From IMG/VR virus record IMGVR_UViG_3300010396_000051, positions 1-56,086 of that record: a stretch of 56,086 nucleotides of DNA; one strand, 5' to 3'. The stretch comes from a virus. Taxonomy: Duplodnaviria; Caudoviricetes. Under the pieces are notes generated by a model. That model was not told where the DNA came from. It made no database searches and saw only the letters and a list, made by a program, of their open reading frames with translations. The position numbers and the translations under genes were made by a program. Shown piece after piece: positions 2,933 through 48,718 of this stretch; position 1 is the stretch's first letter; every line of letters starts with the position of its first letter.

Positions 2933-3141
2933 GTGAACGTGACTGTATTTCTTGCAAACGATTTCTATCCAACAAGGAAGCGCACACGATTGTGTGGAAA
3001 GTGGGCGGGGAGAGCCGATTTACCGATAGTTTCTATATCTCCTATCCGGCCCAAACCGATGGACCCGTCATCTGTGAAACCTGTATCCCATCCCAAATTC
3101 AGCGTTACCTTACGACAGTCAAAGAGAGGTTTTCGTTTTGA
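2929..3141 (+). CDS. Small Zn-binding hypothetical protein
   Basis: CxxC...CxxC; 4-nt overlaps with both neighbours. Confidence 0.6.
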   Translation: MSERDCISCKRFLSNKEAHTIVWKVGGESRFTDSFYISYPAQTDGPVICETCIPSQIQRYLTTVKERFSF

Positions 3142-3824
3142 AGCATCTGAACATGGACTACTGCATCGCCACTGTCTTCCAGCCGAAGTGGAAGGACTGT
3201 ATCAAGACTTGGTGGCTCACAGAAACCGCAGAGCACCCCATGAGGCTCGCTCAGAACATGGGCGTGGTGGATGCCTACCAGTGGTGCTTCGAGAGGTCCG
3301 ATGCTGACGTGCTGGCGTTCCTGCACGACGACGTAATCATCTCCGAGTTCGGATGGGATAAGCGCGTTCTGAAGGAGTTTGAAGATCCCACCGTGGGACT
3401 CGTCGGATTCTTCGGTGCCAAGGCTCACGGCGATCCCGAGATGTACAAGAAGCCCTACCAACTCTCTCAGCTTGGCCGCTCCGGGTGCCTGTCGAACATG
3501 GTAGACGCGGAGCACCATGGACAGCGGTTCACCGGAGAAACCGATGTGGCAGTCCTTGACGCCTTTTCGATGTTCGTTCGGCGCGAGGTGCTGGAGAAGG
3601 CGGGAGGATGGCCGGTCAACACGCCGGTTGATTACATATCGCCGGATTATTGGATTTCCTGCATGACACGCAGGTTGGGTTACAGGATTCGCGTGGTCGG
3701 GGTTGCCTGCCAGCACTTGAGTGGAGGATCAAATGGACGCAACGTCAAGCCCATCGACTTCGAGGGAGCGCACCGCTACATCTACGAAACCTTTAAAGAT
3801 TGCCTGCCAGCGAGGGTTCCATGA
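3138..3824 (+). CDS. GT-A fold glycosyltransferase (GT2-like)
   Basis: ADVLAFLHDDV; VGLVGFFGA; VAVLDAFSMFVRREV; terminal CQHLSG. Confidence 0.85.
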   Translation: MKHLNMDYCIATVFQPKWKDCIKTWWLTETAEHPMRLAQNMGVVDAYQWCFERSDADVLAFLHDDVIISEFGWDKRVLKEFEDPTVGLVGFFGAKAHGDPEMYKKPYQLSQLGRSGCLSNMVDAEHHGQRFTGETDVAVLDAFSMFVRREVLEKAGGWPVNTPVDYISPDYWISCMTRRLGYRIRVVGVACQHLSGGSNGRNVKPIDFEGAHRYIYETFKDCLPARVP

Positions 3825-4516
3825 TCGTTAATTTTGTAATGCTTTTTCACGGAAGGCCGACCCTGCTAAAGCAGAGCCTTGAGTCGATCGGAGACACGTC
3901 AGGCATTATTTTCACGCTGCACGGAGAAGACCCTCAGCCTGAAGCATTGACAGTCGCTCGCGATTTCATGAGGGAAAACGACGGCTGTCTCAGCGCAACA
4001 GGCGAGAACCGAGGTACAGGGTTAGCGCGGAATGCTGCTATCGACATAGCCTCAAGTGTTCGCGGCGACTTCCTTTACCTGTCAGATGATGACGTGTTCT
4101 TTCTCCGTCCTGATTGGCTCGCAGTGCTGACGCAAATGTTTGAAGAAGTCGAGCAGTACGGATTCGCCGCTCTTGGAGCTTATAACCATCCCTATAATGG
4201 CCCGGTGACGATATTTCCTCCTGTCATCGACAACAAGTACATGGTTGGCGAGGTCTACGCGCTTGCTACTCAGTCCATGCTTCTCCGGTGGGAGACGTTC
4301 TACCGCTTCGGGCCTTTCTGCCAAACGCCGCCAGGGAGGGTCTGCCAGTCGGAGGATGTGGAGTTCAGCAACAAAATCCGTGCTGCCGGCCTGAAGGTGG
4401 GAACCATGATTCCGCCACTGCTGGCGAACACGGGCATCACGAACAGCTGTGGAGACAAGATACCGGGATGGGAGTTGGTTAAGTCTCAATGCCCTGAAGG
4501 AGTAATCTGCGAATGA
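3821..4516 (+). CDS. GT2-like glycosyltransferase
   Basis: ENRGTGLARNAAI; GDFLYLSDDDV (DxD); SEDVEFS. Confidence 0.9.
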   Translation: MIVNFVMLFHGRPTLLKQSLESIGDTSGIIFTLHGEDPQPEALTVARDFMRENDGCLSATGENRGTGLARNAAIDIASSVRGDFLYLSDDDVFFLRPDWLAVLTQMFEEVEQYGFAALGAYNHPYNGPVTIFPPVIDNKYMVGEVYALATQSMLLRWETFYRFGPFCQTPPGRVCQSEDVEFSNKIRAAGLKVGTMIPPLLANTGITNSCGDKIPGWELVKSQCPEGVICE

Positions 4517-5082
4517 CGTTTGCCGAGGCAATGATCGAGGTCCGTAAAACCTCATCCCATACCGCGCTTTCTGATGAAGAGGCGAGAGTTCTCTACGATG
4601 CGATGGCCGGATTGCAATCGCAAGACTTTGTGATTGAGATTGGTTCACAACTTGGAAGGTCTTCTGTGCTCATCACACAGATGGCCCTCTCCCGAGGCTT
4701 CCACTCCATCCACGTCGATCCATTCTGCGAACAGGACGTATGGGCTCACGACTTCATTAAGCGCATGTGTGAGGTACGCAGTGACCGGGACCGTGCATTC
4801 ACCTTCCTCTGCATGAGGACAGATCAGGCGCGAGACATTCTCGACCAACTGCATCCCATCCAACTCATCTACGTGGACGGTGACCACACCTATGCGGGAG
4901 TGAAGACGGACCTTGAGTTCGCCAGAGTAAACCTTGTAGAAGGCGGATACCTGCTCTGTCACGACTACGGCCGCGAGAGTCTGCCGGATGTGTACAAGGC
5001 TGTCTCGGAGTTCCTGTCAGTGAACCCGGATTTCACTCTCGTTGCCCATGAAGGCACGATGGGATGCTGGAGGCGTGGATGA
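4513..5082 (+). CDS. Class I SAM-dependent methyltransferase (Methyltransf_24-like)
   Basis: VIEIGSQLGRSS; LIYVDGDHTY; GGYLLCHDY. Confidence 0.9.
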   Translation: MTFAEAMIEVRKTSSHTALSDEEARVLYDAMAGLQSQDFVIEIGSQLGRSSVLITQMALSRGFHSIHVDPFCEQDVWAHDFIKRMCEVRSDRDRAFTFLCMRTDQARDILDQLHPIQLIYVDGDHTYAGVKTDLEFARVNLVEGGYLLCHDYGRESLPDVYKAVSEFLSVNPDFTLVAHEGTMGCWRRG

Positions 5083-5600
5083 TTGGAATCAACGTAGGCT
5101 CCGGTCAGCGTCCATTCGGAGAGAGTTGGATCAATGTCGATTCGGTTTGGCACGAGGGAATGCCGAAGCCGGACGTGATCTGCGATGGAGCACATTTGCC
5201 GTTCGAGAGTGGATACGCGGATTATGTTTGCCTTCATCACGTTCTTGAACATTTCGGCTGCGGTGAGGGCGAAGGATTGCTGCGTGAGGCGCATCGCGTT
5301 TTGACGCCGGGAGGTTCGCTGCTGGTGTTCGTTCCAGATCTGCGCAAGTTGGTTAAGTTGTGGTTTTCGGGTGAGATTTCGACACAGATTTACATGACGA
5401 ATCTCTATGGTGCCTACATGGGCCACGATGAGGACCGGCACAAATGGGGGTACGATCTCAACTCTCTCGTAGAGTTCATCGACCACTGCCCGCATGAGCC
5501 GCGCTGGAACACGATTAAGCAGTTCGACTGGACACCTATTCCCGGCGCAGACATCGCCCGAGATGACCGATGGATACTTGGAGTGGAGGCGATTAAGTGA
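5079..5600 (+). CDS. Class I SAM-dependent methyltransferase (Methyltransf_11-like)
   Basis: INVGSG..WINVD; HVLEH; EAHRVLTPGGSLLVFVPD. Confidence 0.9.
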   Translation: MIGINVGSGQRPFGESWINVDSVWHEGMPKPDVICDGAHLPFESGYADYVCLHHVLEHFGCGEGEGLLREAHRVLTPGGSLLVFVPDLRKLVKLWFSGEISTQIYMTNLYGAYMGHDEDRHKWGYDLNSLVEFIDHCPHEPRWNTIKQFDWTPIPGADIARDDRWILGVEAIK

Positions 5601-6298
5601 ACCCTGCTTGCCCTGTTCTTATTCTTGTCCGCAACTGCTTCGAACTGACCAAGCGGTGCATTGAGAGTGTTCGCGCTCAGGATGTCGATGATCTTGAGAT
5701 TTGGGTTGTAGACAATGGCTCGTCTGATGGTGTGAGCGAATGGCTGCACGATCAGGAAGACGTGTGCTCTTGGGAATTCCGAGAGAACTTGGGAGTCAGC
5801 AAGGGATGGAACTACGGCCTAGAAGAACAGTTTGCATTTCAAAAGTCGAAACACTGTCTCGTCATCAACAACGACGTGGTGCTTCCGCCGTGGTTCTACC
5901 GTACCCTGCTCTCCTATGACGCTCCCTTCGTGACCGGAGTCGCCATCGACACCATGCCGCTCGATGAGCCAGAGAGAATGCCGCTCACCCCTCACCCGGA
6001 CTTCAGCGCGTTCCTGATTCGGCGCGAGTGTTGGGAGAAAGTAGGCAAGTTCGATGAAGATATGGTGCTCTACGCATCCGACTGTTCGTACCACGTCCGC
6101 GCACATCGGCTTGGCGTTCCGCTGATGAAGGCGAATGTCCCCTTCTATCACGTAAATTCACAGACCATGAAACGCGCAAATACGGAGGAGAAGAGATGGA
6201 TTCAGGAACAAGCGAACAAGGACAGAGCGGTGTTCAAAGCGAAGTACGGATGCCTCCCAGGGACGCCCGAATACGCGAAACTATTCAGCACGCCTTAG
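5597..6298 (+). CDS. GT2 glycosyltransferase
   Basis: WVVDNGSSDG; NLGVSKGWN; VINNDV; VGKFDE. Confidence 0.9.
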   Translation: MNPACPVLILVRNCFELTKRCIESVRAQDVDDLEIWVVDNGSSDGVSEWLHDQEDVCSWEFRENLGVSKGWNYGLEEQFAFQKSKHCLVINNDVVLPPWFYRTLLSYDAPFVTGVAIDTMPLDEPERMPLTPHPDFSAFLIRRECWEKVGKFDEDMVLYASDCSYHVRAHRLGVPLMKANVPFYHVNSQTMKRANTEEKRWIQEQANKDRAVFKAKYGCLPGTPEYAKLFSTP

Positions 6299-18859: not shown

Positions 18860-20077
18860 CTATCCGCGAATTCCGTAACCCTGGAAGTGACGCCGCGGTG
18901 TTGGCGTGTAGAAATTGAGCGCGTGCCGCAAGAACTGCGTGTAAAGCGTCGGGTTCTGCGGATAGCGAATCGGGTCCATCATGTGATAGTTGAATGTCCC
19001 CGTGTTGGCCGGACGATACTTCCACGAATCGACGTCCAGACCGAAGATTGGTTCTCCGACAACGATGGTGTTCAATCCACCCGTCAGTGATGCAGTCGCG
19101 TTCGATGTGAACCCGAGGTTCGGGAGCAGCGAGGTCGCCTGGTTCACAAGCATGGCCTGCGTCAGCGTGAACTGGCCGGTCTGAATCGCGCCCGGTGCCG
19201 GAGCAGTGCCATCCGGCGACTGGAAGAGGTTTGCGATCGAAGGCTTCGGGCTGGACGACGGAACGATGTCATCCTCGAAGATCGTCGCATCCTCAAACTT
19301 GATGCCGGACCAGTTGATGTTCTGGTCATCGCGTGTCTCGTACCGCTGTTGGCGCTGGAATGCCGAAGCAATCGCGGAGTACCCGATCCACGAGGTCACC
19401 ATCAGGTCAACGCGGCCGATGGTGCTCATGTAGAGTTTGAGTAATTCCTGATAGTTCGGAGGAGCCGGGTTGCCGCTGGCGTCACCCAACCACACCGGAG
19501 TCGAGTTCATCGAAGCGGCGATGGCGCCGTTGCGTGTCTGCGAGGAGTACGTCGGGAAGACGTTGCCATCCCATGAGGGAGTTACGCCGTCATTCACCGC
19601 TTCCGAGATGCCGTTGATTGAGGCGAGACGGTCGTCCGAAACGCCTGTGCCTGCCGCCTGCCCGTGCCGGAACATATCGCCTTCCAACTGGAAGTCAATG
19701 CCTTCCTGCATCTGGTTGAGGTAGGCTTCGAGGATCGAGACGCGAGCTTCGGGGCCAGTGTTCTGCACCTCCAGCGAAAACTCTTCCACGAGGATGTGCT
19801 TCTCGTAGAGCTTTGGCTGGAAGAGGCCGGCAGTAATCATCTGCACGCGGTTGACCGAGACATCCTGGCCGGGGAAGATTGCCCCGCCCTGTGCGCCTTG
19901 GTACAACTGCGGGATCTGCATCGCCGCACCGCCGCCGAACGGGTCATACGCACCCGAGGCACGCATACGCCGCTGAAACGGGGTCGCGATGTAAGAATTT
20001 TGGAAGATTAAGCCGTCAATAATCTCATTAACGGTGACTGCCGGTACCTCAGGAAAAAGTGGTCCGAATGCGGGAAT
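18860..20077 (-). CDS. Major capsid protein (HK97 fold); true start unresolved, frame open 37+ codons upstream of ATG 19966 without a canonical start
   Basis: Position between scaffold and decoration genes; PAFGPLFPEVPAVTVNEIIDGLIFQNSYIATPFQRRMRASG...FGGG..QIP; SINGISEAV; IFEDDIVP. Confidence 0.8.
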   Translation of the reverse strand: MPAFGPLFPEVPAVTVNEIIDGLIFQNSYIATPFQRRMRASGAYDPFGGGAAMQIPQLYQGAQGGAIFPGQDVSVNRVQMITAGLFQPKLYEKHILVEEFSLEVQNTGPEARVSILEAYLNQMQEGIDFQLEGDMFRHGQAAGTGVSDDRLASINGISEAVNDGVTPSWDGNVFPTYSSQTRNGAIAASMNSTPVWLGDASGNPAPPNYQELLKLYMSTIGRVDLMVTSWIGYSAIASAFQRQQRYETRDDQNINWSGIKFEDATIFEDDIVPSSSPKPSIANLFQSPDGTAPAPGAIQTGQFTLTQAMLVNQATSLLPNLGFTSNATASLTGGLNTIVVGEPIFGLDVDSWKYRPANTGTFNYHMMDPIRYPQNPTLYTQFLRHALNFYTPTPRRHFQGYGIRG

Positions 20078-22531: not shown

Positions 22532-24655
22532 CTACCCCGATGTGCTGGCTACTGCCCTGCCGCCTGAAGCCAAGCCCTTCTGTTTTGCGCGAGGTGCCTG
22601 CTTGTTTGAAGCCGGACGGCCGCCATGCCCCGGCGCTGGCCCCGGCTTGCCGCCTTCCTCATCTTCTCCACCGAACCCAAGAGCTTTTGCCAGTTTCGCA
22701 ATCTCTGCCTTTTCGGTCAGTTGCTCTTTGGCCCAATTGAAAACCTTCTCTTTCACCGTCGAGCCTTCGATGGAGCCCCAATTCGGAATCTCAAAGGCGT
22801 TCGCCATCGTCTCGGGATCGACAATCACTCCCTTGCCCTGCGCTGCCAAGAGGTTCAGCTTGAACTTGTTCTGAGCGATGTAGTGCAGAGAGTGCGGAGT
22901 GATGTAGTAGCGGATATTCTTGGCGAAGTTCTCGGCGCGTTGCCCCTCATCGGCATTCGAGGGAACCGGCTTTCCTTCAGCGTCGATGGTCTGTTCGCCG
23001 GGGAGGTGCGAGGGAATCACCATGTCCGGCGCGTAGTCGAAGACTTCCGGCGCGATCGACTCCGGACCAACGTACTGCATGACCCTTGCCGTGGTGAGGT
23101 ATTGGAGGATGAGGTACTTCATCATCTCGCCCATGTCGCGCAATCCCTGCTCCATTGAGCGCGAAGTTCCCATGACCACCGGACCCTCTGCGTCGAGAGC
23201 CTTCTCGGGATCTTGAATGTTTGCCCTAAGCTTTTCGAGGGACTTGATCTGATCGAGCCCCATCTGGCGCATGATGGAGTTCTGCAAAAGTTCGATTACC
23301 TTGAATACCCACTCAGGGATGTTGTAGCACCACTCCGGCATTAGTGGACGCATCACTGGTTCTTTGTTGTCCCCGTCTACAGCGTAGGTCTGATCTGGAG
23401 AGAATGGATCAATCCCCTCTGCCTGTCGTGAGGTTAGCTTTGCGTTCTTGTCTCCGGTAGTGATATCGGCGTTATAGGATTTCCCAGGCTTCGCACGGGC
23501 CATCGCAACGCGGTAGATCGACCTTGCCAGGTCATCAATCGCATCCTGAAGCGGCCATGTCCCGTCGAAGAGGGAGTTCGCATCGCCCCATGCCCACTTG
23601 TCGAAGTAGAACGGAACCAGAGGCACCATGCCGTGCCGGTCGAAGGCGGGACCGTCGTACATCAGAGCAGAGTCACAGGAGATCATCAGCCTCCGGCGCG
23701 GGTAGACGCGGCAATCGTCCTCAGTCGCAGGACGTTCAACATTTCGACCTCCCTCAAAGCGGGTAATCGTCTGACCCACGTAGGGGACTTTGTAGTGCCA
23801 CGAGGTTCCCGGCTGGCCCATCTCCAGTTCTTTTCCGACCGGGTTCCCGTCTTCTCCGATGACCGGCTTCCCTTCCGCATCCATCTCTCCGAAGTTGATT
23901 CTCAGATCAAGGACGTAGGTGTAGTAGATGTCGCAGTATTGCTCCAACTGCCCACCGAGGCCGTGCATCTGCTGACGCGCCTTCTCCCACCGACCGCGAT
24001 TGACTTCCCCGCCCTTCGTCTTCCCGTACCGCTTTGCAGCGAATGGCTTGATGTACTGCTGATAGAGCGGGAACCGTGCATGAGCCTCTGCCACGCCAAA
24101 GGGGATCGCCAGCGTCACGATGTAGGCGCGTTGATAGTTCCGGTCACGTGGAAGCTGCACAGGGAGAACGTCGGGCTGTCCGAGAGCCATGAAGCGAAAC
24201 TCGCCCTCCCCCATGCCGAAGCAGCCACGCGAGTAGAAGGGATGGAGGAATCCACAGGAGGTAGCCGCGGCGAACTGCAAAGCCTCTTTCAGTTCTCGGT
24301 CAACGAAGTATTCGAGGTAGATCGCCTTCGCTGTCTTCGAGAGCATGTCCGCGTGTTTCTGGAATGCCTTGTTGTCCGTCGAGTATCCCCAGAAGGGACG
24401 GATGTCAGCCAGCGTCTCGACTGTCTCCGTCACAGCGCGTTTCAGGTCGCCGGTCGTGAAGGTTGACCATCCCCCGGAGCGTTCGCTGCCAGTCTTGCCG
24501 GCGAGAATGTCCATTGCCTTCTGAATGGAAGTCTGATCCAGATGGTCTTCGTTCCACTTGATTCCTTGCTCGATGGCCTGTTGAACGGATGCCAGCTTCT
24601 TGTCGTCCGGCTCCTCAAAGTTCGGAATTTGCCAATTTAGTTCATTGCTTGGCAA
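22532..24655 (-). CDS. Portal protein
   Basis: 707 aa downstream of TerL; PLVPFYF..W..SL...LQDAIDDL pattern; GAGGTG RBS with TTG start. Confidence 0.8.
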   Translation of the reverse strand: MPSNELNWQIPNFEEPDDKKLASVQQAIEQGIKWNEDHLDQTSIQKAMDILAGKTGSERSGGWSTFTTGDLKRAVTETVETLADIRPFWGYSTDNKAFQKHADMLSKTAKAIYLEYFVDRELKEALQFAAATSCGFLHPFYSRGCFGMGEGEFRFMALGQPDVLPVQLPRDRNYQRAYIVTLAIPFGVAEAHARFPLYQQYIKPFAAKRYGKTKGGEVNRGRWEKARQQMHGLGGQLEQYCDIYYTYVLDLRINFGEMDAEGKPVIGEDGNPVGKELEMGQPGTSWHYKVPYVGQTITRFEGGRNVERPATEDDCRVYPRRRLMISCDSALMYDGPAFDRHGMVPLVPFYFDKWAWGDANSLFDGTWPLQDAIDDLARSIYRVAMARAKPGKSYNADITTGDKNAKLTSRQAEGIDPFSPDQTYAVDGDNKEPVMRPLMPEWCYNIPEWVFKVIELLQNSIMRQMGLDQIKSLEKLRANIQDPEKALDAEGPVVMGTSRSMEQGLRDMGEMMKYLILQYLTTARVMQYVGPESIAPEVFDYAPDMVIPSHLPGEQTIDAEGKPVPSNADEGQRAENFAKNIRYYITPHSLHYIAQNKFKLNLLAAQGKGVIVDPETMANAFEIPNWGSIEGSTVKEKVFNWAKEQLTEKAEIAKLAKALGFGGEDEEGGKPGPAPGHGGRPASNKQAPRAKQKGLASGGRAVASTSG

Positions 24656-25254
24656 GGTGTCACCTCGTTCAAGATTGAGAACTGGCCAAACACTTGGTAA
24701 GCGTAGAAGTTATACGCGAGAGCAGCTAACTCTGCGGTTCGATATGTGCCGAGGCCGTGATTTTTCCCATCGTGCTGACATTGTGCCGAATATGGCTTTG
24801 AGCGGCAATTCTTCAGCCTGATTACTCCACGGTATCCATGCCGATTAGCATAGACACGATTAGAGGCGTTTTGGCTTGCTGTTGCGATGCGAATATTTGA
24901 TCGCCTGCAATCTAGACCGTTCCCGTTCGCGTGATCCACATGCAATCCTGCCGGAAAGCCAAGCAAGAGTCGATGAAGAGATATGACACTCTTCTGACCC
25001 GCGCAAACCAACTCGTCCTCTAACCTTTTCGCTTCGGCGTACATCTTCCCTTTGCAGCCCTTGTGAGCCCTGAGCCTCCACATGAACCTTTTCGCTAAAG
25101 GCTCATCGGCTTTGTCTATCAATGCTTCTTTTCCGTTCCTAAGTGGAATGTGAACCACGCCATCGTTGTCAGTAATCCATCCGTCGTTCATGAAACTACG
25201 ACGCCAATTGAAATACTGCTTACGACCAACAACGGTTCCTAGCTGAATGGCCAT
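24637..25254 (-). CDS. HNH homing endonuclease with AP2 domain
   Basis: LHRLLL..VDHANGNGLDCRRSNIR; LGTYRTAELAALAYN. Confidence 0.9.
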   Translation of the reverse strand: MAIQLGTVVGRKQYFNWRRSFMNDGWITDNDGVVHIPLRNGKEALIDKADEPLAKRFMWRLRAHKGCKGKMYAEAKRLEDELVCAGQKSVISLHRLLLGFPAGLHVDHANGNGLDCRRSNIRIATASQNASNRVYANRHGYRGVIRLKNCRSKPYSAQCQHDGKNHGLGTYRTAELAALAYNFYAYQVFGQFSILNEVTPCQAMN

Positions 25255-25700
25255 TACATGATCCTCGTTCTCGTCGGCTCAAGCGGAGCCTCTGATTCCT
25301 GCATCGCGCTCACACCGTACACCGTGTTCTGCTGCATCTTCGAGTCCCGCTCGTCCATCAACTTCAGCGAGGCGCGGATGATGTTCTTCTCTGCGTCCGA
25401 TACCCCGGCAGACTGGAGGCGCGTGCGCAGCGCCGAGCGGAGGCGGTCATAGTGCTCCCGGCCACGAGTCAGGATGCCTTCGATGACTTGCTCGTTCTTG
25501 GCGCGTTCCTGTTCGTGCATCCGGTTGAATAGCCGGTCCATCTCCTTAGGATTCTTGGTGCAGTGGCGAACATAGCCGTGAGGTACGGGAGACAAGGGAG
25601 ACGTGAAGAAGATGCGCTTGGTCTGGTAGTGCTCCGCGTACCAAAGCACTTCCTTGCCGTTCTCGAAGGAGTAGTCCCGCTCTTTCAGTTGAACTTTCAT
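25254..25700 (-). CDS. Hypothetical protein
   Basis: 148 aa coupled to TerL stop. Confidence 0.7.
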   Translation of the reverse strand: MKVQLKERDYSFENGKEVLWYAEHYQTKRIFFTSPLSPVPHGYVRHCTKNPKEMDRLFNRMHEQERAKNEQVIEGILTRGREHYDRLRSALRTRLQSAGVSDAEKNIIRASLKLMDERDSKMQQNTVYGVSAMQESEAPLEPTRTRIM

Positions 25701-27847
25701 ATCAGGTTCAATTCCTGTGACAATTCATCGTAACTCACGTTGTATCCAACAGGGAACGCATAATTTGTCTCCGCTTTTACGTCCTCTTCCTCAAATGGCT
25801 TCTCCAGCCTGCGGGTCATCGACTCGGTATCGTTCAGGATTGTGAACGCAATCCCCGAAGCGAAGATGCGGTCATCCTTCTTTCCCTGCTCGTGCTCAAA
25901 CTTCGTCTTTCCGCCTTCGGTCTGGTCAGCCTGAAATGAGGGAATCTCCTGCTTTATGAGGAATGGATCGTTCAACTTCAGCCAGTGATTCTCGACCGCG
26001 TTTTTGTAGAGCGAGAGCATGAAGTTGCGGGACCAGTCGTAGGTGTACCAGCCAAGTTTCTTCGACCGCTTTTTGTCCTTGTTCGGGTTCAGGCCGTCCA
26101 GACGGGAGAACTTGTAAAACCGCTTGTACCCCATCCCGATCATCTGGGTCTGCATCACGTCACCCATGCCGTAAACCTGCTCAATCGCTACCAGGGGCTC
26201 GCCATAAGGCAAGCCGTCCACCTTGTAGAGCGCAGCCAGCGCGAGGCCGTAGGTGTGCATCATGGCAGGGTTAATGGTGTTCGAGGCGAACATCGCGCAC
26301 ACTTCATCGGGCTCGTTACGAATCAGGCAATGCCGGACGACGCAAAGAATGGAGTTGTCCTGCTTGGTTCCTCCGGAGTTGTCTACGCCAATCCCGTAGT
26401 CATACCCCTCTTCCGGCCACTGGTAAATCAGGAGTTTGTTGTTGCCGTTGAAGAGTTCGACTCCCCTCTCCTGCGGCTGCTTCAAGGGGACAAACTCCCA
26501 TTCGAAAGTCTTGTTCGATCGTCCCCTCAAGTCATGAACGTGTCCGTCATAGGTGATCTTGAACCGCTCCCGGTCATAGTTGATGTCGTAGGGGTCGGGA
26601 TGGAGTTTTTCGGGGATCTGCTCACCGACAATCGCCCATGCCGAGTACGTCTCCCGCGAGTTGTCCTGCTTTTCATTCTCTGAGAGCGAGAAGTAAAGTT
26701 CCTTTTCCGGCCGGAGACCATCGATGTCGTCGCAAGGCATCTCCTGTAGCCAACCATTCTCGTTGTCCTTGCGTCGGTACTCCAGCAACTTTTGTTCCCA
26801 GAAGTAGGACTGCCAGTTCGGCATCCTCCACGCATCGCCCATAAAGCGCCGTAGAAGCGGCGTCTGGTGTACGTAGGACGCTCCCTTGTCCATCATGCGC
26901 TGCGTCTCAGGGAGTGGCATCCAGCCACCGGGAACGGGATGTTCCTTACGCCATGTGATTGTAGGGAAGAGATCGTCAGCTAGGAACCACGGGAAAAAGA
27001 TTGGCTGAAGTCGGGCGCCGCCAGATGCCCAGAAGTCCCGCGATGAGTACCACGTCTTCGCCCACCAGTTTGTGTTCCCGTTCCCTGTGGATTCAAGGAT
27101 CATGAAGGTATTCGGCGTGGGATGGACTGACTGGAAAAGTGAGTTTTCGATGATCTCGTCAGCCTTGGGAAAGACTGAAACTTCGGAGATGTGGATGACA
27201 GAGGGGGTGTCGCCGCGGGCGATGCCGGAAGCCTTTTTTCCTGAGTAGAGCGTCAGGCGAGTGTTGTTGCCAGCGAAGGCCATCAGTGATCCGGCGCGGT
27301 CTGACGTGGGGTTAGCTCGCATCCATGACGGCATTTCGTTGTACGCGAGCTGCATCATTCCGCCCATTCGCTCACAGGCGTCTGAGTCATAGGAGGCGAT
27401 TGCCGCCTTGACTCCAATTCCAAAATTAACGAGGTAGGTGATAGCGAGTTCAACAGCGGTGGAAAGACCCTGCTGGCGAGCTTTCATAACCTGCTGCTCA
27501 ATGGCTAGACTCGCTTCATTCCGTTCCGCCCAGAGTTCGAGGAGCATCTTCTGAGTGGCGCGAGGCTGGTAGCGAACAATCTTTCCGTTTGCATTGATCC
27601 ATGCGTAGTTCTCAGACCAGTAGCGGTAGTCGGCCGCACAGATGCGATATTCATTGTCGATAAACTTCATCTCATCGAAGCCGAGCAAATCTTCTAGGTC
27701 TTTGCCGTGACCATCAGCCTTCTTGCCGAGTTCGACAAAATGAGAATGGAAAGACTCTATTTGCGAGAGGGTATGGTACTCGGGAATCCATCCTGTCCGA
27801 GCGGAAACAGATTCGAGTTTCGCGTATGCCATCTGCTGGCTAAACAC
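25697..27847 (-). CDS. terL: Terminase large subunit
   Basis: VMKARQQGLST Walker A; IHISE Walker B; ILEST; GIGVDNSGG and DDRIFA RNase H-like nuclease motifs. Confidence 0.92.
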   Translation of the reverse strand: MFSQQMAYAKLESVSARTGWIPEYHTLSQIESFHSHFVELGKKADGHGKDLEDLLGFDEMKFIDNEYRICAADYRYWSENYAWINANGKIVRYQPRATQKMLLELWAERNEASLAIEQQVMKARQQGLSTAVELAITYLVNFGIGVKAAIASYDSDACERMGGMMQLAYNEMPSWMRANPTSDRAGSLMAFAGNNTRLTLYSGKKASGIARGDTPSVIHISEVSVFPKADEIIENSLFQSVHPTPNTFMILESTGNGNTNWWAKTWYSSRDFWASGGARLQPIFFPWFLADDLFPTITWRKEHPVPGGWMPLPETQRMMDKGASYVHQTPLLRRFMGDAWRMPNWQSYFWEQKLLEYRRKDNENGWLQEMPCDDIDGLRPEKELYFSLSENEKQDNSRETYSAWAIVGEQIPEKLHPDPYDINYDRERFKITYDGHVHDLRGRSNKTFEWEFVPLKQPQERGVELFNGNNKLLIYQWPEEGYDYGIGVDNSGGTKQDNSILCVVRHCLIRNEPDEVCAMFASNTINPAMMHTYGLALAALYKVDGLPYGEPLVAIEQVYGMGDVMQTQMIGMGYKRFYKFSRLDGLNPNKDKKRSKKLGWYTYDWSRNFMLSLYKNAVENHWLKLNDPFLIKQEIPSFQADQTEGGKTKFEHEQGKKDDRIFASGIAFTILNDTESMTRRLEKPFEEEDVKAETNYAFPVGYNVSYDELSQELNLI

Positions 27848-29939: not shown

Positions 29940-30716
29940 ATGGAAACTAAGAGGGAAAATAGGATAGTCTGCCAATTCTCATGCGGTGCAGCATCGGCGG
30001 TGGCGACGAAGTTAACTCTGGCTCATTACGGCCATGAGAACGTCATCATCGTTAATGCTTTCCTGAAGGAAGAAGACTCCGACAATCGACGTTTCGCTGC
30101 TGACTGTGAGAAGTGGTTCGACCATCCCATCACAACCCTGCGTGACGAGAAGTACGGAGCATCGGCCCGTGAGGTATGGACGCGGGTTCGGTTCATTAAG
30201 GGGCCACACGGAGCTCCATGCTCTCTCAAGCTGAAGCGTGAACTGCTTGCGGAGATTGCGCAGGATGGCGACATTAACATTCTGGGATTCACTGCCGAGG
30301 AGTGGGACCGTCTCGAAGACTTTAGAGAGAACTTCCCATCAAAGAACGCGCAGTCTCCGCTAGTGGAAAAGGGGCTCACGAAAGCGGACTGCCTTTCGAT
30401 GGTCGAACGCGCAGGGATTGAACTTCCGCACATGTATCGACTTGGGTATCAGAATACCAACTGTATCGGCTGCCCTAAGGGTGGTCAGAACTACTGGATG
30501 AATATTCGTGAAGACTTCCCGCAGGATTTCGTGCAAATCAAGGCGATTCAGGAAGACATCGGAGAGGGAGCGTACTTCCTCCAGTTCCGCAGCGGTCCCC
30601 GTAAGGGTGAGCGCATGAGCCTTTCCGATCTTCCTCCTGGACGTGGGAACATGGCACTGGACCCGAACTTCTCATGCTCGTTTTACTGCGAACTGGCAGA
30701 GCGAGAATACCGATAG
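29940..30716 (+). CDS. PP-loop PAPS-reductase-like phage protein
   Basis: FSCGAASAVA PP-loop; GAPCS; MYRLGYQNTNCIGCPKGG. Confidence 0.8.
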   Translation: METKRENRIVCQFSCGAASAVATKLTLAHYGHENVIIVNAFLKEEDSDNRRFAADCEKWFDHPITTLRDEKYGASAREVWTRVRFIKGPHGAPCSLKLKRELLAEIAQDGDINILGFTAEEWDRLEDFRENFPSKNAQSPLVEKGLTKADCLSMVERAGIELPHMYRLGYQNTNCIGCPKGGQNYWMNIREDFPQDFVQIKAIQEDIGEGAYFLQFRSGPRKGERMSLSDLPPGRGNMALDPNFSCSFYCELAEREYR

Positions 30717-33378: not shown

Positions 33379-33397
33379 AATTGCCAACATGACAATA
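33379..33397. promoter_or_regulatory. Palindrome family A, copy 5
   Basis: AATTGCCAACATGACAATA between divergent regulator genes. Confidence 0.75.
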
Positions 33398-33430
33398 GAC
33401 GTGAAGTAACAAAATAATTTGCGTACACTA

Positions 33431-33459
33431 TTGACACGAGTGTTATTCAGTGTCATTAT
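33431..33459 (+). promoter_or_regulatory. Sigma70-like promoter, probably leaderless transcript
   Basis: TTGACA-17 nt-CATTAT with TG extension, 7 nt before ATG 33467. Confidence 0.7.
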
Positions 33460-33601: not shown

Positions 33602-33843
33602 GGCCAGTGCAAGGCTCTCGCATTATTCCAAAGACTCTTCCAAAGGTGTGCTGCGTTTATGCGCTGTACTCCGAGGGAAAGATGATCGAGCTGTTCGACT
33701 GGGCAACCGAAACGACGCTCGCGAAGATGGGAACCGAGGAGCAGAAAGCCTCCATCCGGTCGCTGGTCGTTTCAGTTAAAGAAGATGTCCTACGTTGAAA
33801 AGCACTTCAAAGCGATGGTTGATCTTTCGATGAGGTTAGCGGC

Positions 33844-34161
33844 ATGGCCTACTCCAACCCAAGAATGAGCGCAGTGATTGAGAACTGGCCGAGCGAGAAA
33901 CACCGTGTTACGGCTCGGTTTGAGATTGAACAGGACGCCAAGCGCGGCGAGCGCGGAACCCGCGTTACTGACGGCGCAACCAAAAAACTGACCTACGCGA
34001 AGATGGCGCGGATTGTAGACGGTGACGACGGCCGCACATACATCGCAGAGCTGACCATCTACGGGACCATCTCCATCATGCAGGGAAATATGAAGTTTCA
34101 GCAGGAATCAATCCACGACCGTGATCCGCGTTATGCTGCCGCGCTCGAACTCTTCGCGTAA
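33844..34161 (+). CDS. Hypothetical early protein
   Basis: GAGG RBS, 105 aa. Confidence 0.7.
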   Translation: MAYSNPRMSAVIENWPSEKHRVTARFEIEQDAKRGERGTRVTDGATKKLTYAKMARIVDGDDGRTYIAELTIYGTISIMQGNMKFQQESIHDRDPRYAAALELFA

Positions 34162-34173
34162 CCCCGGCCTGAT

Positions 34174-34227
34174 GGCCGCAATGCAGCCGTGGACGGTGAC
34201 AAGCCCGTGTAAATGCAGAGTCAAGGC
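34174..34227 (+). ncRNA. Twister ribozyme, copy 1
   Basis: AA-UGCA-GC-N5-ACGG-U-GAC-AAGC-CCGU-GUAAA-UGCA-GA-GUC: P2, P4 and both pseudoknots present. Confidence 0.85.
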
Positions 34228-34263
34228 AGTGAATACCTTGTATTTGCAAGTGAGGAGAGACGA

Positions 34264-34522
34264 GATGAAAATGACGCGAGCACAAGAAGCATATCTTTCG
34301 GTGGCAAAGTCTTCTGATGTTCCTAAGCTGATGGAAGAATACGGTTTCGAGTTTGCAGGACCGTCATTCAAGGATGCGTGGATGTTCCGTGATGGCGACG
34401 GTAATGCGTGGCTCCTCACAGACTTTCGTGGCAAGGTTGCACCGTGCCGAATGATGCTTCCCTCGCTGTGGTGCCACGCTAATATTCTTGCACTGCTTAA
34501 GCCTCAAGGGGGTGCGCAATGA
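34264..34522 (+). CDS. Hypothetical early protein
   Basis: GAGGAG RBS downstream of twister 1; start approximate. Confidence 0.6.
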
Positions 34523-34614
34523 AGTTCTGGCGGGAGTGGTGGTTTTCAATAATCATCCTTGGGCTGATGTTTTTGAGTGCTGCCATTGTGGTTATTCGTC
34601 AAGGGGGACGCTAA

Positions 34615-34824
34615 ATGGGGCGCGTTACATGGTCACGATCTAAAGCAGAAGCGAGACGGAGAATCCTACTCAAGGGTTGTCTGACCTGTGGAAGCGTCAT
34701 CTGCAAGTGTAAGGACGATCCCGAGGTTGGGTATATTCACGATCGTTTCTGTGTTGATTGCGGATTGCCACTAAAGGTTGGGGAGATTTGCCCTAATTGT
34801 GCTCGGCATGGAATTGTTCGATGA
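34615..34824 (+). CDS. Small Cys-rich Zn-finger protein
   Basis: Multiple CxxC. Confidence 0.55.
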   Translation: MGRVTWSRSKAEARRRILLKGCLTCGSVICKCKDDPEVGYIHDRFCVDCGLPLKVGEICPNCARHGIVR

Positions 34825-34851
34825 ACTGCCCCCACTGCGGTAAGCCCTCGG

Positions 34852-34906
34852 GGCCTTAATGCAGCCGATAGACGGTGACCAGCCCGTGAAAATGCAGAGT
34901 CAGCCG
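34852..34906 (+). ncRNA. Twister ribozyme, copy 2
   Basis: UAA-UGCA-GC-N6-ACGG-U-GAC-CAGC-CCGU-GAAAA-UGCA-GA-GUC. Confidence 0.85.
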
Positions 34907-34920
34907 AAAGGAAACACCGC

Positions 34921-35154
34921 ATGAGCTACATCATTGATAAATACGCCGACCTTCCCCTGATTCAACACGCATCAGCTAAGGACGGCGAGACACTCTGGAT
35001 TTACGCGATGGGCAAACGGTTTCAGGTTCGCGCCATCACTACCACGGTTAACTCAGCCAATGAGTTCATGGATAAGCATGAGGAAACGGCGCTCATTGCC
35101 TGCTTTGGACCGTTCAACATCATCGCAAACAAATACGAAGGCGTTAGAGATTGA
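34921..35154 (+). CDS. Hypothetical early protein
   Basis: AAGGA RBS directly after twister 2. Confidence 0.7.
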   Translation: MSYIIDKYADLPLIQHASAKDGETLWIYAMGKRFQVRAITTTVNSANEFMDKHEETALIACFGPFNIIANKYEGVRD

Positions 35155-35474
35155 AAGGAACGACCATGTACATGCCAGATCCCGCCGTACTCCGAAGACT
35201 CAGCAAAGAAAGACTCCTCCGGGCTGAAGAGATTCGCAAATCAGCCTGGCTCAACGATGACACCCTGTTACGCGCACAGGCCGCACAGTACCGCGTTGCA
35301 GCCAACGAGACGGTGTACGAGACCACCAACCGCGTCTGCGACCGTCACGAGATGCCCACGAAGGATTACCCCTTTAGCGGCATTCTCAAGCCTTCCAAGG
35401 TAGAACTGAATTACACCGCGGCCGCTCTCCTGATTGCATCGACTCTTTACCTGGCTGTGGAGGTGTTGAAATGA
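35151..35474 (+). CDS. Hypothetical protein with C-terminal hydrophobic segment
   Basis: ORF in operon; start may be 35166. Confidence 0.55.
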   Translation: MKGTTMYMPDPAVLRRLSKERLLRAEEIRKSAWLNDDTLLRAQAAQYRVAANETVYETTNRVCDRHEMPTKDYPFSGILKPSKVELNYTAAALLIASTLYLAVEVLK

Positions 35475-35806: not shown

Positions 35807-36082
35807 ATGAACAATTTTGAATGGGGTTCACGCTGCGCCGAATGCGGCAGAATCATGAAAGGTGGGCGGTCTTACCAATGCCCTAAAGGTGGACAGTGTA
35901 GCTGGCATGTTCCCGCCGCTGCCCGTGAAACGATGAGCGAACTCGTGGATGCTTTAACGTCTTTCACGACGTTGGTGTGTAACATGCGCGACCTCTACAA
36001 CGTTCCCGCCGCCAAATGGTTCGCCGAATCAGAGACGTGGAAGAAGTCCACCAAAGCACTCCAGAAAGCAGGGATTGAATGA
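35807..36082 (+). CDS. Hypothetical Zn-binding protein
   Basis: AAGGA RBS; CAECG...CP...C. Confidence 0.55.
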   Translation: MNNFEWGSRCAECGRIMKGGRSYQCPKGGQCSWHVPAAARETMSELVDALTSFTTLVCNMRDLYNVPAAKWFAESETWKKSTKALQKAGIE

Positions 36083-36291
36083 ACTCCGCACCGATCACTC
36101 ACGAATGGCTCACGCGAGCGCAAGCCGCGGAGAAGTTGCAAGTCACATCGCGCACGATCGATACCTACATCAAGGATGGAAGGCTGAAGGCTGCGAAGTT
36201 TGGCAAACCAGGTGGACGCGGAAACGTCCGCATCTCTGCCGCGAGTCTCAATGCACTGCTTGAGCCAGAACCTCTCGCACCTCGTCAATAG
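36079..36291 (+). CDS. Excisionase-like HTH_17 DNA-binding protein
   Basis: WLTRAQAAEKLQVTSRTIDTYIKDGRLKA..VRI. Confidence 0.8.
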   Translation: MNSAPITHEWLTRAQAAEKLQVTSRTIDTYIKDGRLKAAKFGKPGGRGNVRISAASLNALLEPEPLAPRQ

Positions 36292-41762: not shown

Positions 41763-42203
41763 AAGGCTGCATCGGAATGGAAACGCAAGAGCGCAAGCCG
41801 CCCAAGGAACCCCCTTACGCATATGTGAATCGCTTTTACGGTCTTGCCGTGAAGCCAGGTATGCGCGTGACCATGCCGGGACACCGTCCAACAGAGGAAG
41901 GCGTAGTCGTTCGCAAGCAGTCCTATGATCACTACGTTCACGTTCGCTTTTCGGGTCAGACCTTTGACGTTCCAGTGTATCCGCTGGAGTTGAAGTATGA
42001 GTAACTACCCGAGAGTTCTTGAGCGCGACAGGAACGGCAGGGAAACGCTGTGGGAGTGCTCTGATTGCGGAAAGCCCTTCACGAAGGGATGGGGATCGCG
42101 CTGTAACGCCTGTATCCTTGCCGCCGAGCGCCATGCTGAACTGATTGCCGCAGTGAAGGCTTTCAGGGATGGGGAAGAGTTTCATGGAGAGGGACGCTCA
42201 TGA
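41759..42203 (+). other. Two small hypothetical ORFs (41759-42004, 41997-42203)
   Basis: Coupled ORFs upstream of integrase. Confidence 0.6.
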
Positions 42204-43387
42204 ACGATCTGTCGAGACGTCGTTACCAGAGAGGATCGCTATCGAAAGATGGCTCCCGGTGGCGTGCAAGGTGGAGAGAGGATGTAATCGTCCCCGCTGG
42301 CATCCCTCCCCTCAAGGGGGACAAGCCACTCGGGAACGGAACCATCCTTCGCCGCGTCTCCCGCAACCGGGAGATAGGCTCGCTCAAAGAGTTCCCCACC
42401 AAACGGCTTGCTGAGCGGGAACTGGAGCGCATCCTTCAGGACATCAACCGGGAGGATTACAAGCCTGTCGTCTCCTCCACCTTCGAGTCATTCGCGGAGA
42501 AGTGGCAGAAGAACGTCATGGTTCACCACAAGCCCTCTACACAGCACGGAGAGCGGTCGGTGATCCAGAACCATCTCCTGCCTGCCTTCGGCCGCATGTC
42601 GTGGCGGGAAATCACGGCTGAGTGCCTTCAGGCGTGGGTGTCCAGACAGACTGACGCTCCCAACTCCGTCCGCAACCGCATCACGACGCTACGCGAGATG
42701 TGGGTATCAGCGAAGGCGTGGGGGTACACGACGCTGAATCCTTTCGAGGGACTGAAGCAGCCGAGCGTGGTCAAGGGTCATTCCTACTTCTTCTCCATCG
42801 AAGAGTCGCTGGCGATCCTGAATGAGTTGACCGGATGGCAGCACACCCTTGTGCGGATTCTCGTAGAGACGGGAATGCGACCTGGCGAAGCTGCCGGCCT
42901 GCGGACTCAGGACTTGGTTGGACGAGTGCTCAAAGTCTCGCAGTCAGTGTTTAATGGGAAGATCCAGACGCCGAAGACCACGAACGCTGTGCGGGAGTTC
43001 GCCATCTCTACCGAGCTTGCCGAGGAGATTGAACGGCTCACGCCGCGGAATGGCTTGCTGTTCACCACGTCCACCGGCCGTCCTATCTGCATGAAGAACT
43101 TCCTGAAGTGGACGCTCGATCCCGTACTCGACAAGTTGGGCATCAAGGCTAAGGCGAAGGCGATGGGATTGAAGTGCGGTTCCTACGCTTTCCGGCATGG
43201 CAACGTGACGGAGATGCGGCGCCGGGGAGTTCCGCTGAAGACGATTCAGAAGCGCGTTGGGCATTCAGCAGGGAGCGGAATCACAGACGAGTTCTACACT
43301 CACGCCGTCGATGCGGATGATATGGCAGCGGCGGATATGTGGGGAGAGTTGTTGAGGCCAACGGCAGAGGGAGAACCAATTCAGTGA
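42200..43387 (+). CDS. int: Tyrosine integrase
   Basis: ETGMRPGE (R), KT, YAFRH, VGH, FYTH (Y); N-terminal RRRYQRGSL arm-binding region. Confidence 0.93.
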   Translation: MNDLSRRRYQRGSLSKDGSRWRARWREDVIVPAGIPPLKGDKPLGNGTILRRVSRNREIGSLKEFPTKRLAERELERILQDINREDYKPVVSSTFESFAEKWQKNVMVHHKPSTQHGERSVIQNHLLPAFGRMSWREITAECLQAWVSRQTDAPNSVRNRITTLREMWVSAKAWGYTTLNPFEGLKQPSVVKGHSYFFSIEESLAILNELTGWQHTLVRILVETGMRPGEAAGLRTQDLVGRVLKVSQSVFNGKIQTPKTTNAVREFAISTELAEEIERLTPRNGLLFTTSTGRPICMKNFLKWTLDPVLDKLGIKAKAKAMGLKCGSYAFRHGNVTEMRRRGVPLKTIQKRVGHSAGSGITDEFYTHAVDADDMAAADMWGELLRPTAEGEPIQ

Positions 43388-45567: not shown

Positions 45568-45996
45568 ATGGAGAGCGTGAAGGTAGAGAAGCGCGGAATT
45601 TCAATAGATGAAGCCATAGAAGAACTGCGCGAGATATTCAAAGAGTTGCAAGATAATCCCGATACTCACGATACATGGGATTGGCTCAATGCAGATTTCT
45701 ACGTCGAAGTGATGCATACGTGCTACCTCACAGAGCAACGCCGAGCGGAGGAAGCGGAAGAGAGCCACAAATACTTCGTGGAACTAGCCTCCAAGCATCG
45801 AGATGAGCTTGATGCGCAGGTCGCCGATCTAACCGCCCAGTTGCAGAGGGCGAGGGAAGCGCTGCAAGGGGTGAAGGATTTGATAGGCGATAGCCAGGGC
45901 GTGGCAGGCTTCCATCTAAACGGCGATATAGCCGAATGGGGCGAATTTGATGTAGTTAATCAGATCGACGCCGCTCTCACGGAGGTTCCGAAGTGA
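45568..45996 (+). CDS. Hypothetical coiled-coil protein
   Basis: AAGGAG RBS; C-terminal GVAGFHLNGDIAEW. Confidence 0.7.
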   Translation: MESVKVEKRGISIDEAIEELREIFKELQDNPDTHDTWDWLNADFYVEVMHTCYLTEQRRAEEAEESHKYFVELASKHRDELDAQVADLTAQLQRAREALQGVKDLIGDSQGVAGFHLNGDIAEWGEFDVVNQIDAALTEVPK

Positions 45997-46505
45997 AGGA
46001 AATCCAGCTTACCCAAGGACAGGTGGCTTTCGTCGATGACGAGGACTATGAGCGCATCAGCGCCCACAAGTGGTGTGCGGCGTGGCACGAAAGAACGCAT
46101 GGCTTTTATGCGACTCGAAAGACCCCGCGAAATGAGGGGAAGCATACCATCCTCATGCACCGGGAAGTAATGGGACTAGAGATCGGGGACCCGCGTCAAG
46201 TAGACCACCGCACACCGAGTGAAACCCTCAACAACTGCAAGTCGAACTTGCGCATCGCCACGCACGCCCAGCAGCAGTACAACACTCGAATTCCGCGCAA
46301 CAATACCTCTGGATTCAAGGGCGTTACAAGGCGCGGCCCGAATGAATGGGCGACTTACATTGCCGTCAACAAGAAAGGCATCTATCTCGGGTCTTTTCGG
46401 ACGGGAGAGTTGGCAGCGGAGGCTTACAAAGCGGCTTCTGCTAAGTATCACGGCGAATTTGGACGCACCGACTCCGCGCCCCGGATAGAGGAGCAAGGGG
46501 AATGA
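45993..46505 (+). CDS. HNH homing endonuclease with AP2 domain
   Basis: MHREVM..VDH..TLNNCKSNLR..NTSGFKGV..YLGSF..AAEAY..HGEF. Confidence 0.9.
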   Translation: MKEIQLTQGQVAFVDDEDYERISAHKWCAAWHERTHGFYATRKTPRNEGKHTILMHREVMGLEIGDPRQVDHRTPSETLNNCKSNLRIATHAQQQYNTRIPRNNTSGFKGVTRRGPNEWATYIAVNKKGIYLGSFRTGELAAEAYKAASAKYHGEFGRTDSAPRIEEQGE

Positions 46506-48283: not shown

Positions 48284-48718
48284 CTACGACGCTTTCTGCC
48301 ATAAATCAATCTCCTTCTTGCGTCTAGCGACTAGACCTGCAAGAACTTGGCCTCCAGCGTAGACCCATTTTGCCAATTGAGCTGGGACCTGATCATACTG
48401 CCCCATATTCAGCAGCCGTAGGAGGGTCGATGTTTTGAGCGCCCCGGAGCCCATATTGAACGTGAAGTCCGTCAGTGCATCCGTCTGCCCCTGCGTGAGC
48501 GGAACCTTGACCAGCGCCTGCATTTGTTCGCAGTGGATTTGGAGATCGACGGCGAGTTGAGCGTCGGCCTGCTCTTGGGTCCAGACAAGCCCGTCGTGGA
48601 CTTCCGGACCGGTGTGGCCATAGGCAATTGTCCAGACGCCCACAGGGTCTTGGTAGGCGCGCAGTTTTTCGCCTTCCGACTCCTTGGCCAAATCAACACA
48701 GTCTTGAGAGTAAGTCAT
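48284..48718 (-). CDS. GH24 lysozyme (endolysin)
   Basis: SEG..LRAYQDPVGVWTIAYGHT (E-X8-D-X5-T); DFTFNMG; GLVARRKKE. Confidence 0.95.
   Translation of the reverse strand: MTYSQDCVDLAKESEGEKLRAYQDPVGVWTIAYGHTGPEVHDGLVWTQEQADAQLAVDLQIHCEQMQALVKVPLTQGQTDALTDFTFNMGSGALKTSTLLRLLNMGQYDQVPAQLAKWVYAGGQVLAGLVARRKKEIDLWQKAS

Follow-up and report, generated by a model that had tools for sequence, protein, structure and literature searches.

Two P3-less type-P1 twister elements between small genes in a predicted operon of a soil phage

An array of small genes in a phage genome from soil raises the question of whether a phage may cut its own polycistronic messenger RNA with ribozymes carried between the genes. 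The DNA analysed (the window) is the complete IMG/VR virus record IMGVR_UViG_3300010396_000051, 56,086 bases long with direct terminal repeats, and two near-identical short elements, here called copy 1 and copy 2, lie on its rightward (+) strand between small open reading frames (ORFs). An earlier note on this DNA had read them as twister self-cleaving ribozymes punctuating an early operon. Our analysis assigns both elements, by sequence, to a type-P1 twister subclass that lacks stem P3, carries a GAC/GUC pseudoknot and falls below the Rfam cut-off. It is likely that co-transcriptional self-cleavage by both would segment the phage operon and insulate its parts.

Copy 1 (34174-34227) reads ...GGCCGC/AAUGCAGCC-GUGG-ACGGUGACAAGCCCGU-GUAAA-UGCA-GAGUC-AAGGC and copy 2 (34852-34905) reads ...GGCCUU/AAUGCAGCC-GAUAG-ACGGUGACCAGCCCGU-GAAAA-UGCA-GAGUC-AGCC, with a slash at the predicted cut. 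The parts that the earlier note had listed, namely stems P2 and P4, a GC-GC pseudoknot and a GAC/GUC pseudoknot, were all found in place in both of these near-identical elements (Table 1). The 2-base-pair (bp) pseudoknot, formed by the GC after P2 with the GC of AAGCC, is complementary in both copies, and plain minimum-free-energy (MFE) folding yields P2 and P4 in both. The core pattern has exactly two matches in the window and none in each of 100 shuffles. Direct repeats of 32 nucleotides (nt; 34192-34223 and 34871-34902, 94%) and 16 nt (34174-34189 and 34852-34867, 88%) connect the copies; pairwise alignment of 150-nt regions confines the similarity to 34174-34223 and 34852-34902, the flanks being unrelated. 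By homology, the scissile bonds would lie between C34179 and A34180 in copy 1 and between U34857 and A34858 in copy 2. The distance between these cut sites is 678 nt, in agreement with the fragment of about 680 nt expected earlier from double cutting.

Twister identity was assessed with covariance models. Run in E-value mode, the Rfam twister-P1 model (RF03160; cut-off 67.2) scored 41.1 bits at 34853-34905 (E 1.8e-7) and 39.3 bits at 34175-34226 (E 6.2e-7), aligning full length (model positions 1-68) to both copies; the genome-wide E-values of the two matches are 2.8e-9 and 9.4e-9, respectively. Of 14 control genomes, two had a match to the same model at E ≤ 1 and none had one above the cut-off. 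A second covariance model (R2), built from 26 relatives with the window rows excluded against circularity, was applied, with filters off, to all of the window. Copy 1 scored 63.8 bits (E 8.6e-18) and copy 2 scored 56.4 bits (E 2.2e-15); the next best match in the 56 kb reached 12.1 bits (E 0.42), and only the two copies stand out. All upper-case letters of the Rfam consensus outside the pseudoknot match in copy 1, and in copy 2 a C replaces the first A of AAGCC. Ten core positions of twister are conserved above 97%, according to passages of two papers (PMC5408937, PMC5113685).

The pattern GGTGACNAGCCCNNNNAAANNNNGAGTC was found in 54 viral contigs and in 24 species-representative genomes, 23 of them Clostridia (Ruminococcus, Oscillospiraceae, Acutalibacteraceae) and one an Ardenticatenaceae metagenome-assembled genome. 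Among the 57 pattern matches listed, window included, 50 have a full type-P1 5′ half directly upstream and represent 32 distinct sequences; seven with long inserts or a different 5′ part (L003, L007, L008, L015, L016, L036, and L046) were set aside. Alignment A1 consists of the 24 distinct sequences without P3, the eight with P3 inserts being left out. Alignment A3 has 28 rows, the two window copies and 26 chosen from 67 matches to model R1, and takes in four R1 matches with other pseudoknot letters. It was used for counting pairs; alignment A2, made with cmsearch, was disturbed by P3 inserts and unfit for that purpose.

In A3, 93.7% of cells are paired; shuffling lowers this to 81.1 ± 0.8% (none of 500 shuffles equals the observed value), and shifting the partners by 1-3 columns lowers it to 13-38%. 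Changes on both sides are seen in 13 of 18 pairs. All four pairs of P2 covary and are 100% paired, a figure to be read with the filter of at least three of four P2 pairs applied to pattern-derived rows; three of four pairs covary in P4 (100% paired) and four of five in P1 (77% paired). The 3-bp pseudoknot covaries at two of its three pairs and is paired in all 28 rows. Because the search pattern fixed GAC/GUC in the pattern-derived rows, the evidence for this pseudoknot comes from the four rows found by a covariance model that did not encode the pairing; their letters, GGC/GCC (L022b), CAC/GUG (L035b), and UGC/GCA (L035c and L048a), are all complementary. The 2-bp GC/GC pseudoknot is invariant throughout A3, and covariation speaks neither for nor against it. 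The rice twister has CCC/GGG as its 3-bp pseudoknot, and the family covariation takes in the GAC/GUC pairing, which the earlier note had called a compensatory variant of it; replacing pseudoknot pairs by other Watson-Crick pairs can leave activity intact (PMC5113685). The significant, if sub-threshold, RF03160 matches, the independent R2 scores and the family covariation together uphold the identification of the elements as twisters.

Several observations weigh against this reading and are best considered together. At gathering thresholds, Rfam gave no match over the whole window. The earlier note had named a covariance-model hit as the check on its assignment; no match was obtained at the gathering cut-off and significant ones were obtained beneath it, so a refutation would hold only in its strictest form. 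Relatives fare similarly: two with perfect P1 stems in L022 (3646-3697 and 4225-4276) have just 48.1 and 47.3 bits under RF03160, and a gathering-score Rfam scan of the loci of 14 pattern-found relatives listed no twister-P1. Since relatives with an intact P1 and these 14 loci also miss it, the RF03160 cut-off appears to exclude the whole P3-less GAC/GUC subclass. The missing bits can be attributed to the absence of P3, to the conserved CCC/GGG pseudoknot that the model expects and to P1 mismatches in the window copies, and the shortfall is accordingly read as a property of the subclass and not as a sign of decay. MFE z-scores were not significant (0.24 and 0.81 for the two copies, with 0.16 and −0.13 besides); they are used neither way, since the pseudoknots are not modelled and such values are expected for a small pseudoknotted RNA.

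The remaining adverse points concern P1, single positions and synteny. Copy 1 keeps the outer GCC/GGC of P1, with G.A and C.A as the two pairs beside the cut, and copy 2 keeps only U-A and U.G; with three of five and two of five model pairs left, P1 is weak in both, as had been stated earlier. Free-register P1 duplex energies are −5.4 and −5.2 kcal/mol, 23rd and 32nd of 55 distinct elements (range −9.2 to −1.0), with the register off. The 3′ arm of a hairpin directly upstream of copy 1 occupies the P1 5′ strand and so competes for P1, leaving a single C before the cut; the corresponding hairpin of copy 2 leaves CUU. Copy 1 has C 5′ of the cut, where 23 of 24 A1 rows have U, and C34880 of copy 2 is A in every other viral match among the matches listed. 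The same A-to-C change occurs in three of the 24 genome matches, all otherwise canonical Oscillospiraceae twisters (L070, L084, and L086).

Both copies recur, in unchanged contexts, in a near-identical phage from a second soil sample. In this phage, copy 2 has A at 34880, as in the family, an extra C in the upstream hairpin, and a G34874A change that makes a P4 pair A.C and may mean relaxed constraint; these differences come from one 151-nt contig at depth 2.4. Relatives of the 105-amino-acid (aa) ORF upstream of copy 1 (62-78% identical) are present in seven viral contigs, and, beyond the homologue itself, none of the region's genes recurs in contigs with relatives of this ORF or of the 77-aa ORF that follows copy 2. 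No twister-P1 was found at the matching junctions in the contigs of the seven 105-aa and two 77-aa relatives, so syntenic conservation is absent.

Such observations would fit decay, in which either copy or both, but copy 2 in particular, would be twister relics with no useful cleavage rate, retained as neutral intergenic sequence or structured spacers. The copies lie 7-9 bits under well-formed relatives with RF03160, P1 is defective in both, and copy 2 carries the rare A-to-C change; in the near-identical strain, copy 2 shows the P4-breaking change, C34880A and the inserted hairpin C, against no change in 59 covered adjacent coding bases. However, neither copy has lost a pair of P2, P4 or the pseudoknots or departs from the family at any other invariant column, the A-to-C change also occurs in the three canonical twisters, and the strain comparison depends on the single low-depth contig. 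The similarity of the copies ends exactly at the ribozyme borders, with unrelated flanks, which argues for selection on the ribozyme. Passages of PMC5408937 describe P1 as "dispensable for cleavage activity", a P1-less twister cleaving "with almost wild-type rate", and as phylogenetically conserved though unneeded for catalysis; the uridine 5′ of the scissile bond is called "less conserved" in the same source. Among 69 single helix mutants, 33 had relative activity above 0.8 (PMC5113685). We consider decay an unlikely explanation, copy 2 being the more doubtful of the two as an active ribozyme.

Hairpins directly 5′ of the element are a family feature. Of 59 distinct elements, 52 have an upstream stretch of 34 nt with a folding energy of −5 kcal/mol or lower (median −12.8), compared with 24 of 59 control windows placed 100 nt farther upstream (median −4.1); the values for the window copies are −9.8 and −11.8 kcal/mol. 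In twister ribozymes a stem P0 is located 5′ of P1, and the two window hairpins are P0-like (Table 1). P0 is named as an optional stem in a passage of a review, PMC5408937.

If the elements are twisters, as the foregoing indicates, their position suggests what they may do. Both copies lie between co-directional ORFs, with stop-to-match distances of 11 and 26 nt, and each is followed by a ribosome-binding site (RBS), GAGGAG after copy 1 and AAAGGA after copy 2, as the earlier note had it. With promoter-like sites at their head and no terminator-like site found on the + strand between 33770 and 36600, the ORFs between about 33598 and 36291 appear to form a single rightward transcription unit. 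The promoter consensus scan returned seven sites (2.6 ± 1.6 in shuffles), with leftward sites opposite. The rightward unit thus adjoins a divergent control region, and from this layout its genes may be early ones. Three ORFs, of 85, 31, and 69 aa, form a cassette between the ribozymes; the last is less certain as a gene, its codon usage fitting the phage poorly.

Both ribozymes would be carried on a single rightward polycistronic transcript that covers small phage genes (about 33.6-36.3 kb), and each, on emerging, would fold and cut at its predicted site. Upstream of the cut, the RNA would finish with a hairpin and 1-3 further nt bearing a 2′,3′-cyclic phosphate; downstream of it, a new 5′-OH would lead into the compact fold of the ribozyme and then the RBS of the following gene. 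The operon would be split into three units, consisting of the genes through the 105-aa ORF, the three-ORF cassette, and the 77-aa ORF onward. Stability and translation of these units would no longer be interdependent, and the ribozymes would therefore act as natural insulators. Such splitting of a polycistron is plausible and in line with the literature; in passages of two reviews (PMC6765202, PMC4604425), the processing of polycistronic transcripts is put forward as a role of bacterial twister and hammerhead ribozymes, and these ribozymes are held to be important for phages.

Table 1. Positions of the twister elements, their parts and other features of the window
Feature	Position	Strand	Basis or remark
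Twister copy 1 (type P1, no P3)	34175-34227	+	RF03160 and model R2; scores in text
Copy 1 P1	GCC 34175-34177 with GGC 34225-34227	+
Copy 1 P2 UGCA/UGCA	34182-34185/34214-34217	+
Copy 1 2-bp pseudoknot GC/GC	34186-34187/34203-34204	+
Copy 1 P4 ACGG/CCGU	34193-34196/34205-34208	+
Copy 1 3-bp pseudoknot	GAC 34198-34200 with GUC 34220-34222	+
Twister copy 2 (type P1, no P3)	34853-34905	+	RF03160 and model R2; scores in text
Copy 2 P2 UGCA/UGCA	34860-34863/34893-34896	+
Copy 2 P4 ACGG/CCGU	34872-34875/34884-34887	+
Copy 2 3-bp pseudoknot	GAC 34877-34879 with GUC 34899-34901	+
P0-like hairpin CGGCC-UGAU-GGCCG	34165-34178	+	MFE fold; directly 5′ of copy 1
P0-like hairpin GCCC-UCG-GGGC	34844-34854	+	MFE fold; directly 5′ of copy 2
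Promoter-like site TTGACA-17-CATTAT	33431-33459	+	Consensus scan; head of rightward small-gene array; predicted function
Second promoter-like site	33389-33418	+	Consensus scan; predicted function
105-aa ORF upstream of copy 1	33844-34161	+	No family match; codon usage fits phage
85-aa ORF, first of cassette	34265-34522	+	ATG at 34265; RBS GAGGAG 34252-34257; GC content at third codon positions (GC3) 0.49; no family match
31-aa hydrophobic ORF	34519-34614	+	Start overlaps preceding stop (ATGA)
69-aa Cys-rich (zinc-ribbon-like) ORF	34615-34824	+	Start abuts preceding stop (TAAATG); GC3 0.43
77-aa ORF downstream of copy 2	34921-35154	+	ATG at 34921; RBS AAAGGA 34907-34912, 5 nt after ribozyme
HTH_17 excisionase-like ORF	36079-36291		Family match
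Integrase	42200-43387	+	PHROG_1, E 1.5e-52
Major head protein	18860-19966	-	Protein family scan
Terminase large subunit	25697-27847	-	Protein family scan
Endolysin	48284-48718	-	Protein family scan

The surroundings of other twisters bear on this proposal. A soil phage contig that shares the 105-aa gene (L060) has a Twister-P5 at 1830-1893 (53.7 bits; cut-off 37.6); it lies between the co-directional ORFs 963-1829 and 1947-2672, 1.1 kb upstream of the 105-aa gene homologue. Among 38 elements, a same-strand ORF ends within 150 nt upstream in 32, and an ORF preceded by a Shine-Dalgarno sequence lies within 100 nt downstream in 25 (a crude count with no matched control). Cover by same-strand ORFs is higher than that by opposite-strand ORFs for 28 of the 38 and lower for 10, a weak statistic given how often this GC content produces spurious antisense ORFs.

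Some further features of the relatives were seen along the way. L035 has three twisters in about 1 kb (915-1945), each ahead of a small ORF and with the pseudoknots GAC/GUC, CAC/GUG, and UGC/GCA. In several relatives (L048, 5938-6010; L003; L011; soil contigs) the P1 3′ strand (AAGGAG...) is itself the Shine-Dalgarno sequence of the next ORF, so that the RBS might be exposed once cleavage has occurred and the short 5′ strand has been lost. Contigs with GAC/GUC twisters can be rich in other ribozymes, with Pistol, Hammerhead_II, and two Twister-P5 elements above the Rfam cut-offs (L006, 1706-1776; L004, 3222-3291; L053, 4770-4831 and 6203-6264). The P3 insert of one twister (L036, 7308-7410; also in L046), about 40 nt long, resembles a tRNA by eye; ARAGORN detects none in it.

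Two cuts in one transcript would also free the cassette as a 678-nt tricistronic RNA, which the earlier note had suggested might be ligated into a circle. The end GCCUU>p (34853-34857) would pair with AAGGC (34223-34227) beside the RNA's own 5′-OH, and the nicked twister would be sealed by host RtcB or by reversal of the ribozyme. Engineered circles made with flanking twisters exist: in the Tornado system, two twisters flank an insert and leave ends that suit RtcB. With its cis P1 stems disabled, the locus would be a natural device of this kind, supplying a circular, exonuclease-proof phage mRNA for the orphan three-gene cassette. The trans pairing between the copy 2 5′ strand and the copy 1 3′ strand is Watson-Crick at five of five positions, while each cis P1 is defective. 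However, because the family consensus of P1 is ccCUU/AAGgg, four of the five trans pairs are expected between any two members. Tornado has synthetic end-pairing stems, in contrast to the 5 bp of the window, which the family consensus explains.

Loci with several twisters speak against a circle as well. Two or three twisters with single small genes between them occur in L020, L022, L026, L035, L048, and L013, with an intact cis P1 in each, and the trans strands of L022 and L035 do not match; in view of these loci and of the consensus, trans P1 pairing was dropped as weak evidence for a circle. No RNA-ligase family is among the PHROGs matches of the 67 ORFs scanned in the window. The chemistry of the cleavage ends suits RtcB, and the buried 5′ end of a cleaved twister is a poor substrate for some ligases, both according to passages of PMC8782182. 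The proposed circle has no support beyond end complementarity that is mostly expected from the consensus and not conserved at other multi-twister loci, and we regard both RtcB or ribozyme closure of the fragment and a Tornado-like design of the locus as very improbable.

A further alternative concerns the DNA and is compatible with RNA cleavage, namely that the ribozyme sequences (about 50 bp) form the borders of an exchangeable gene module. The three-ORF cassette would have arrived together with one or both of its ribozymes, and recombination at ribozyme sequences common to different phages would move such cassettes. The cassette has GC3 values of 0.49, 0.56, and 0.43, compared with 0.60-0.69 in neighbouring ORFs, and its AT skew is negative inside (34230-34850) and positive outside. 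No relatives of the 85-aa and 69-aa proteins were found in viral contigs, 256 pattern matches to the 85-aa protein in metagenome contigs yielded none confirmed by tblastn, and a lineage-specific DNA pattern had no match in metagenomes. Since the cassette lacks relatives and is compositionally distinct, the ribozymes may well bracket a foreign module, and the relatives of both flanking genes are without cassette and twister-P1 alike. In addition, nearly the same 28-nt core occurs in unrelated Clostridia phages and in soil contigs. The cassette was not seen elsewhere in a second genome, and hence no exchange event was observed; the differences in composition rest on about 600 nt, and 50 bp of homology is short for efficient recombination. 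Contigs of one soil DNA run have no cover of 34273-34757, which is not read as absence of the cassette. Module exchange appears improbable, somewhat more so than decay of the copies, and insulation of the operon by self-cleavage remains the preferred reading.

The phage itself is tailed and probably temperate, to judge from its terminase, head, endolysin and integrase genes (Table 1). Its terminase is closest to those of the Tunturiibacter (Acidobacteriota) phages Tunturi_1 and Tunturi_2, but it shares no more than 27.8% identity with them along 95% of its length, which hints only weakly at the host lineage. Model R1 found no match in the Tunturiibacter phage record (Tunturi_1) or in the whole records of four relatives, and region 33800-35200 had no blastn match in INPHARED phages (distant mode) or E. 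coli genomes. Both runs containing the window DNA are soil metagenomes.

Other features of the genome include two HNH endonuclease ORFs (24637-25254 on the - strand and 45993-46505 on the + strand; PHROG_99, E 1e-26 and 2e-34), one of which adjoins the terminase. A cluster of glycosyltransferase-/methyltransferase-like ORFs (1778-6298, + strand) and a PAPS-reductase-like ORF (29940-30716, + strand; PHROG_424, E 4e-45) are of the moron or auxiliary-gene type. A 36-nt stretch at 36214-36249 is the only part of the window matched by certain other contigs, with different flanks, in both soil runs; the matches have three mismatches and five gapped letters (CT and AGG inserted), and the stretch lies where the excisionase-like ORF and a DUF559-like ORF overlap.

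The type-P1 twister ribozyme is reportedly that of Roth et al. (2014). The window copies share with it (RF03160) P2, P4, both pseudoknots, the A 3′ of the scissile bond, the core letters GCC, GGU, AAGCC, AAA, and GAG (apart from the C for the first A of AAGCC in copy 2), the location of the 5′ and 3′ ends in P1 and the optional 5′ hairpin. They differ in lacking P3, in having GAC/GUC in place of CCC/GGG, in scoring below the gathering cut-off, and in a P1 cut to two or three pairs, out of register or competing with the upstream hairpin; their setting is a GC-rich temperate soil phage and not Clostridia or eukaryotes. Closer still are the GAC/GUC twisters of Ruminococcus and Oscillospiraceae genomes and of gut and rumen phage contigs (L003-L056 and L066-L089), with a core near-identical over about 45 nt and the same layout of hairpin, short P1, ribozyme, RBS, and small gene, several copies per operon being common. 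These have a contiguous cis P1 of 3-7 bp, which is absent from the window copies, and their surrounding genes are unrelated.

In engineered insulators, a ribozyme just 5′ of an RBS or insert gives a defined 5′-OH end. The window ribozymes likewise stand just 5′ of an RBS, and, as in Tornado, two twisters flank the cassette. The mini-twister lacking P1 (Kosutic et al. 2015, as given in passages of PMC5408937 and PMC5113685), with near wild-type cleavage, is a functional precedent for the window copies; it was engineered and assayed in vitro, whereas the window copies are natural, predicted ribozymes. Neither the twister class nor the proposed role is new, since phage-associated twisters and their part in mRNA processing are already in print, as passages of PMC6765202 and PMC4604425 attest.

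Our analysis extends the arrangement to a GC-rich, probably temperate soil phage, outside the Clostridia that account for 23 of the 24 genome matches. Standard annotation would undercount phage ribozymes, since the Rfam cut-off misses the P3-less subclass without CCC/GGG. The near-minimal P1 of both copies offers a test case for the role of P1 in vivo, and the recurring order of hairpin, ribozyme, RBS, and small gene provides a concrete model of how natural ribozyme insulators may work in phage operons.

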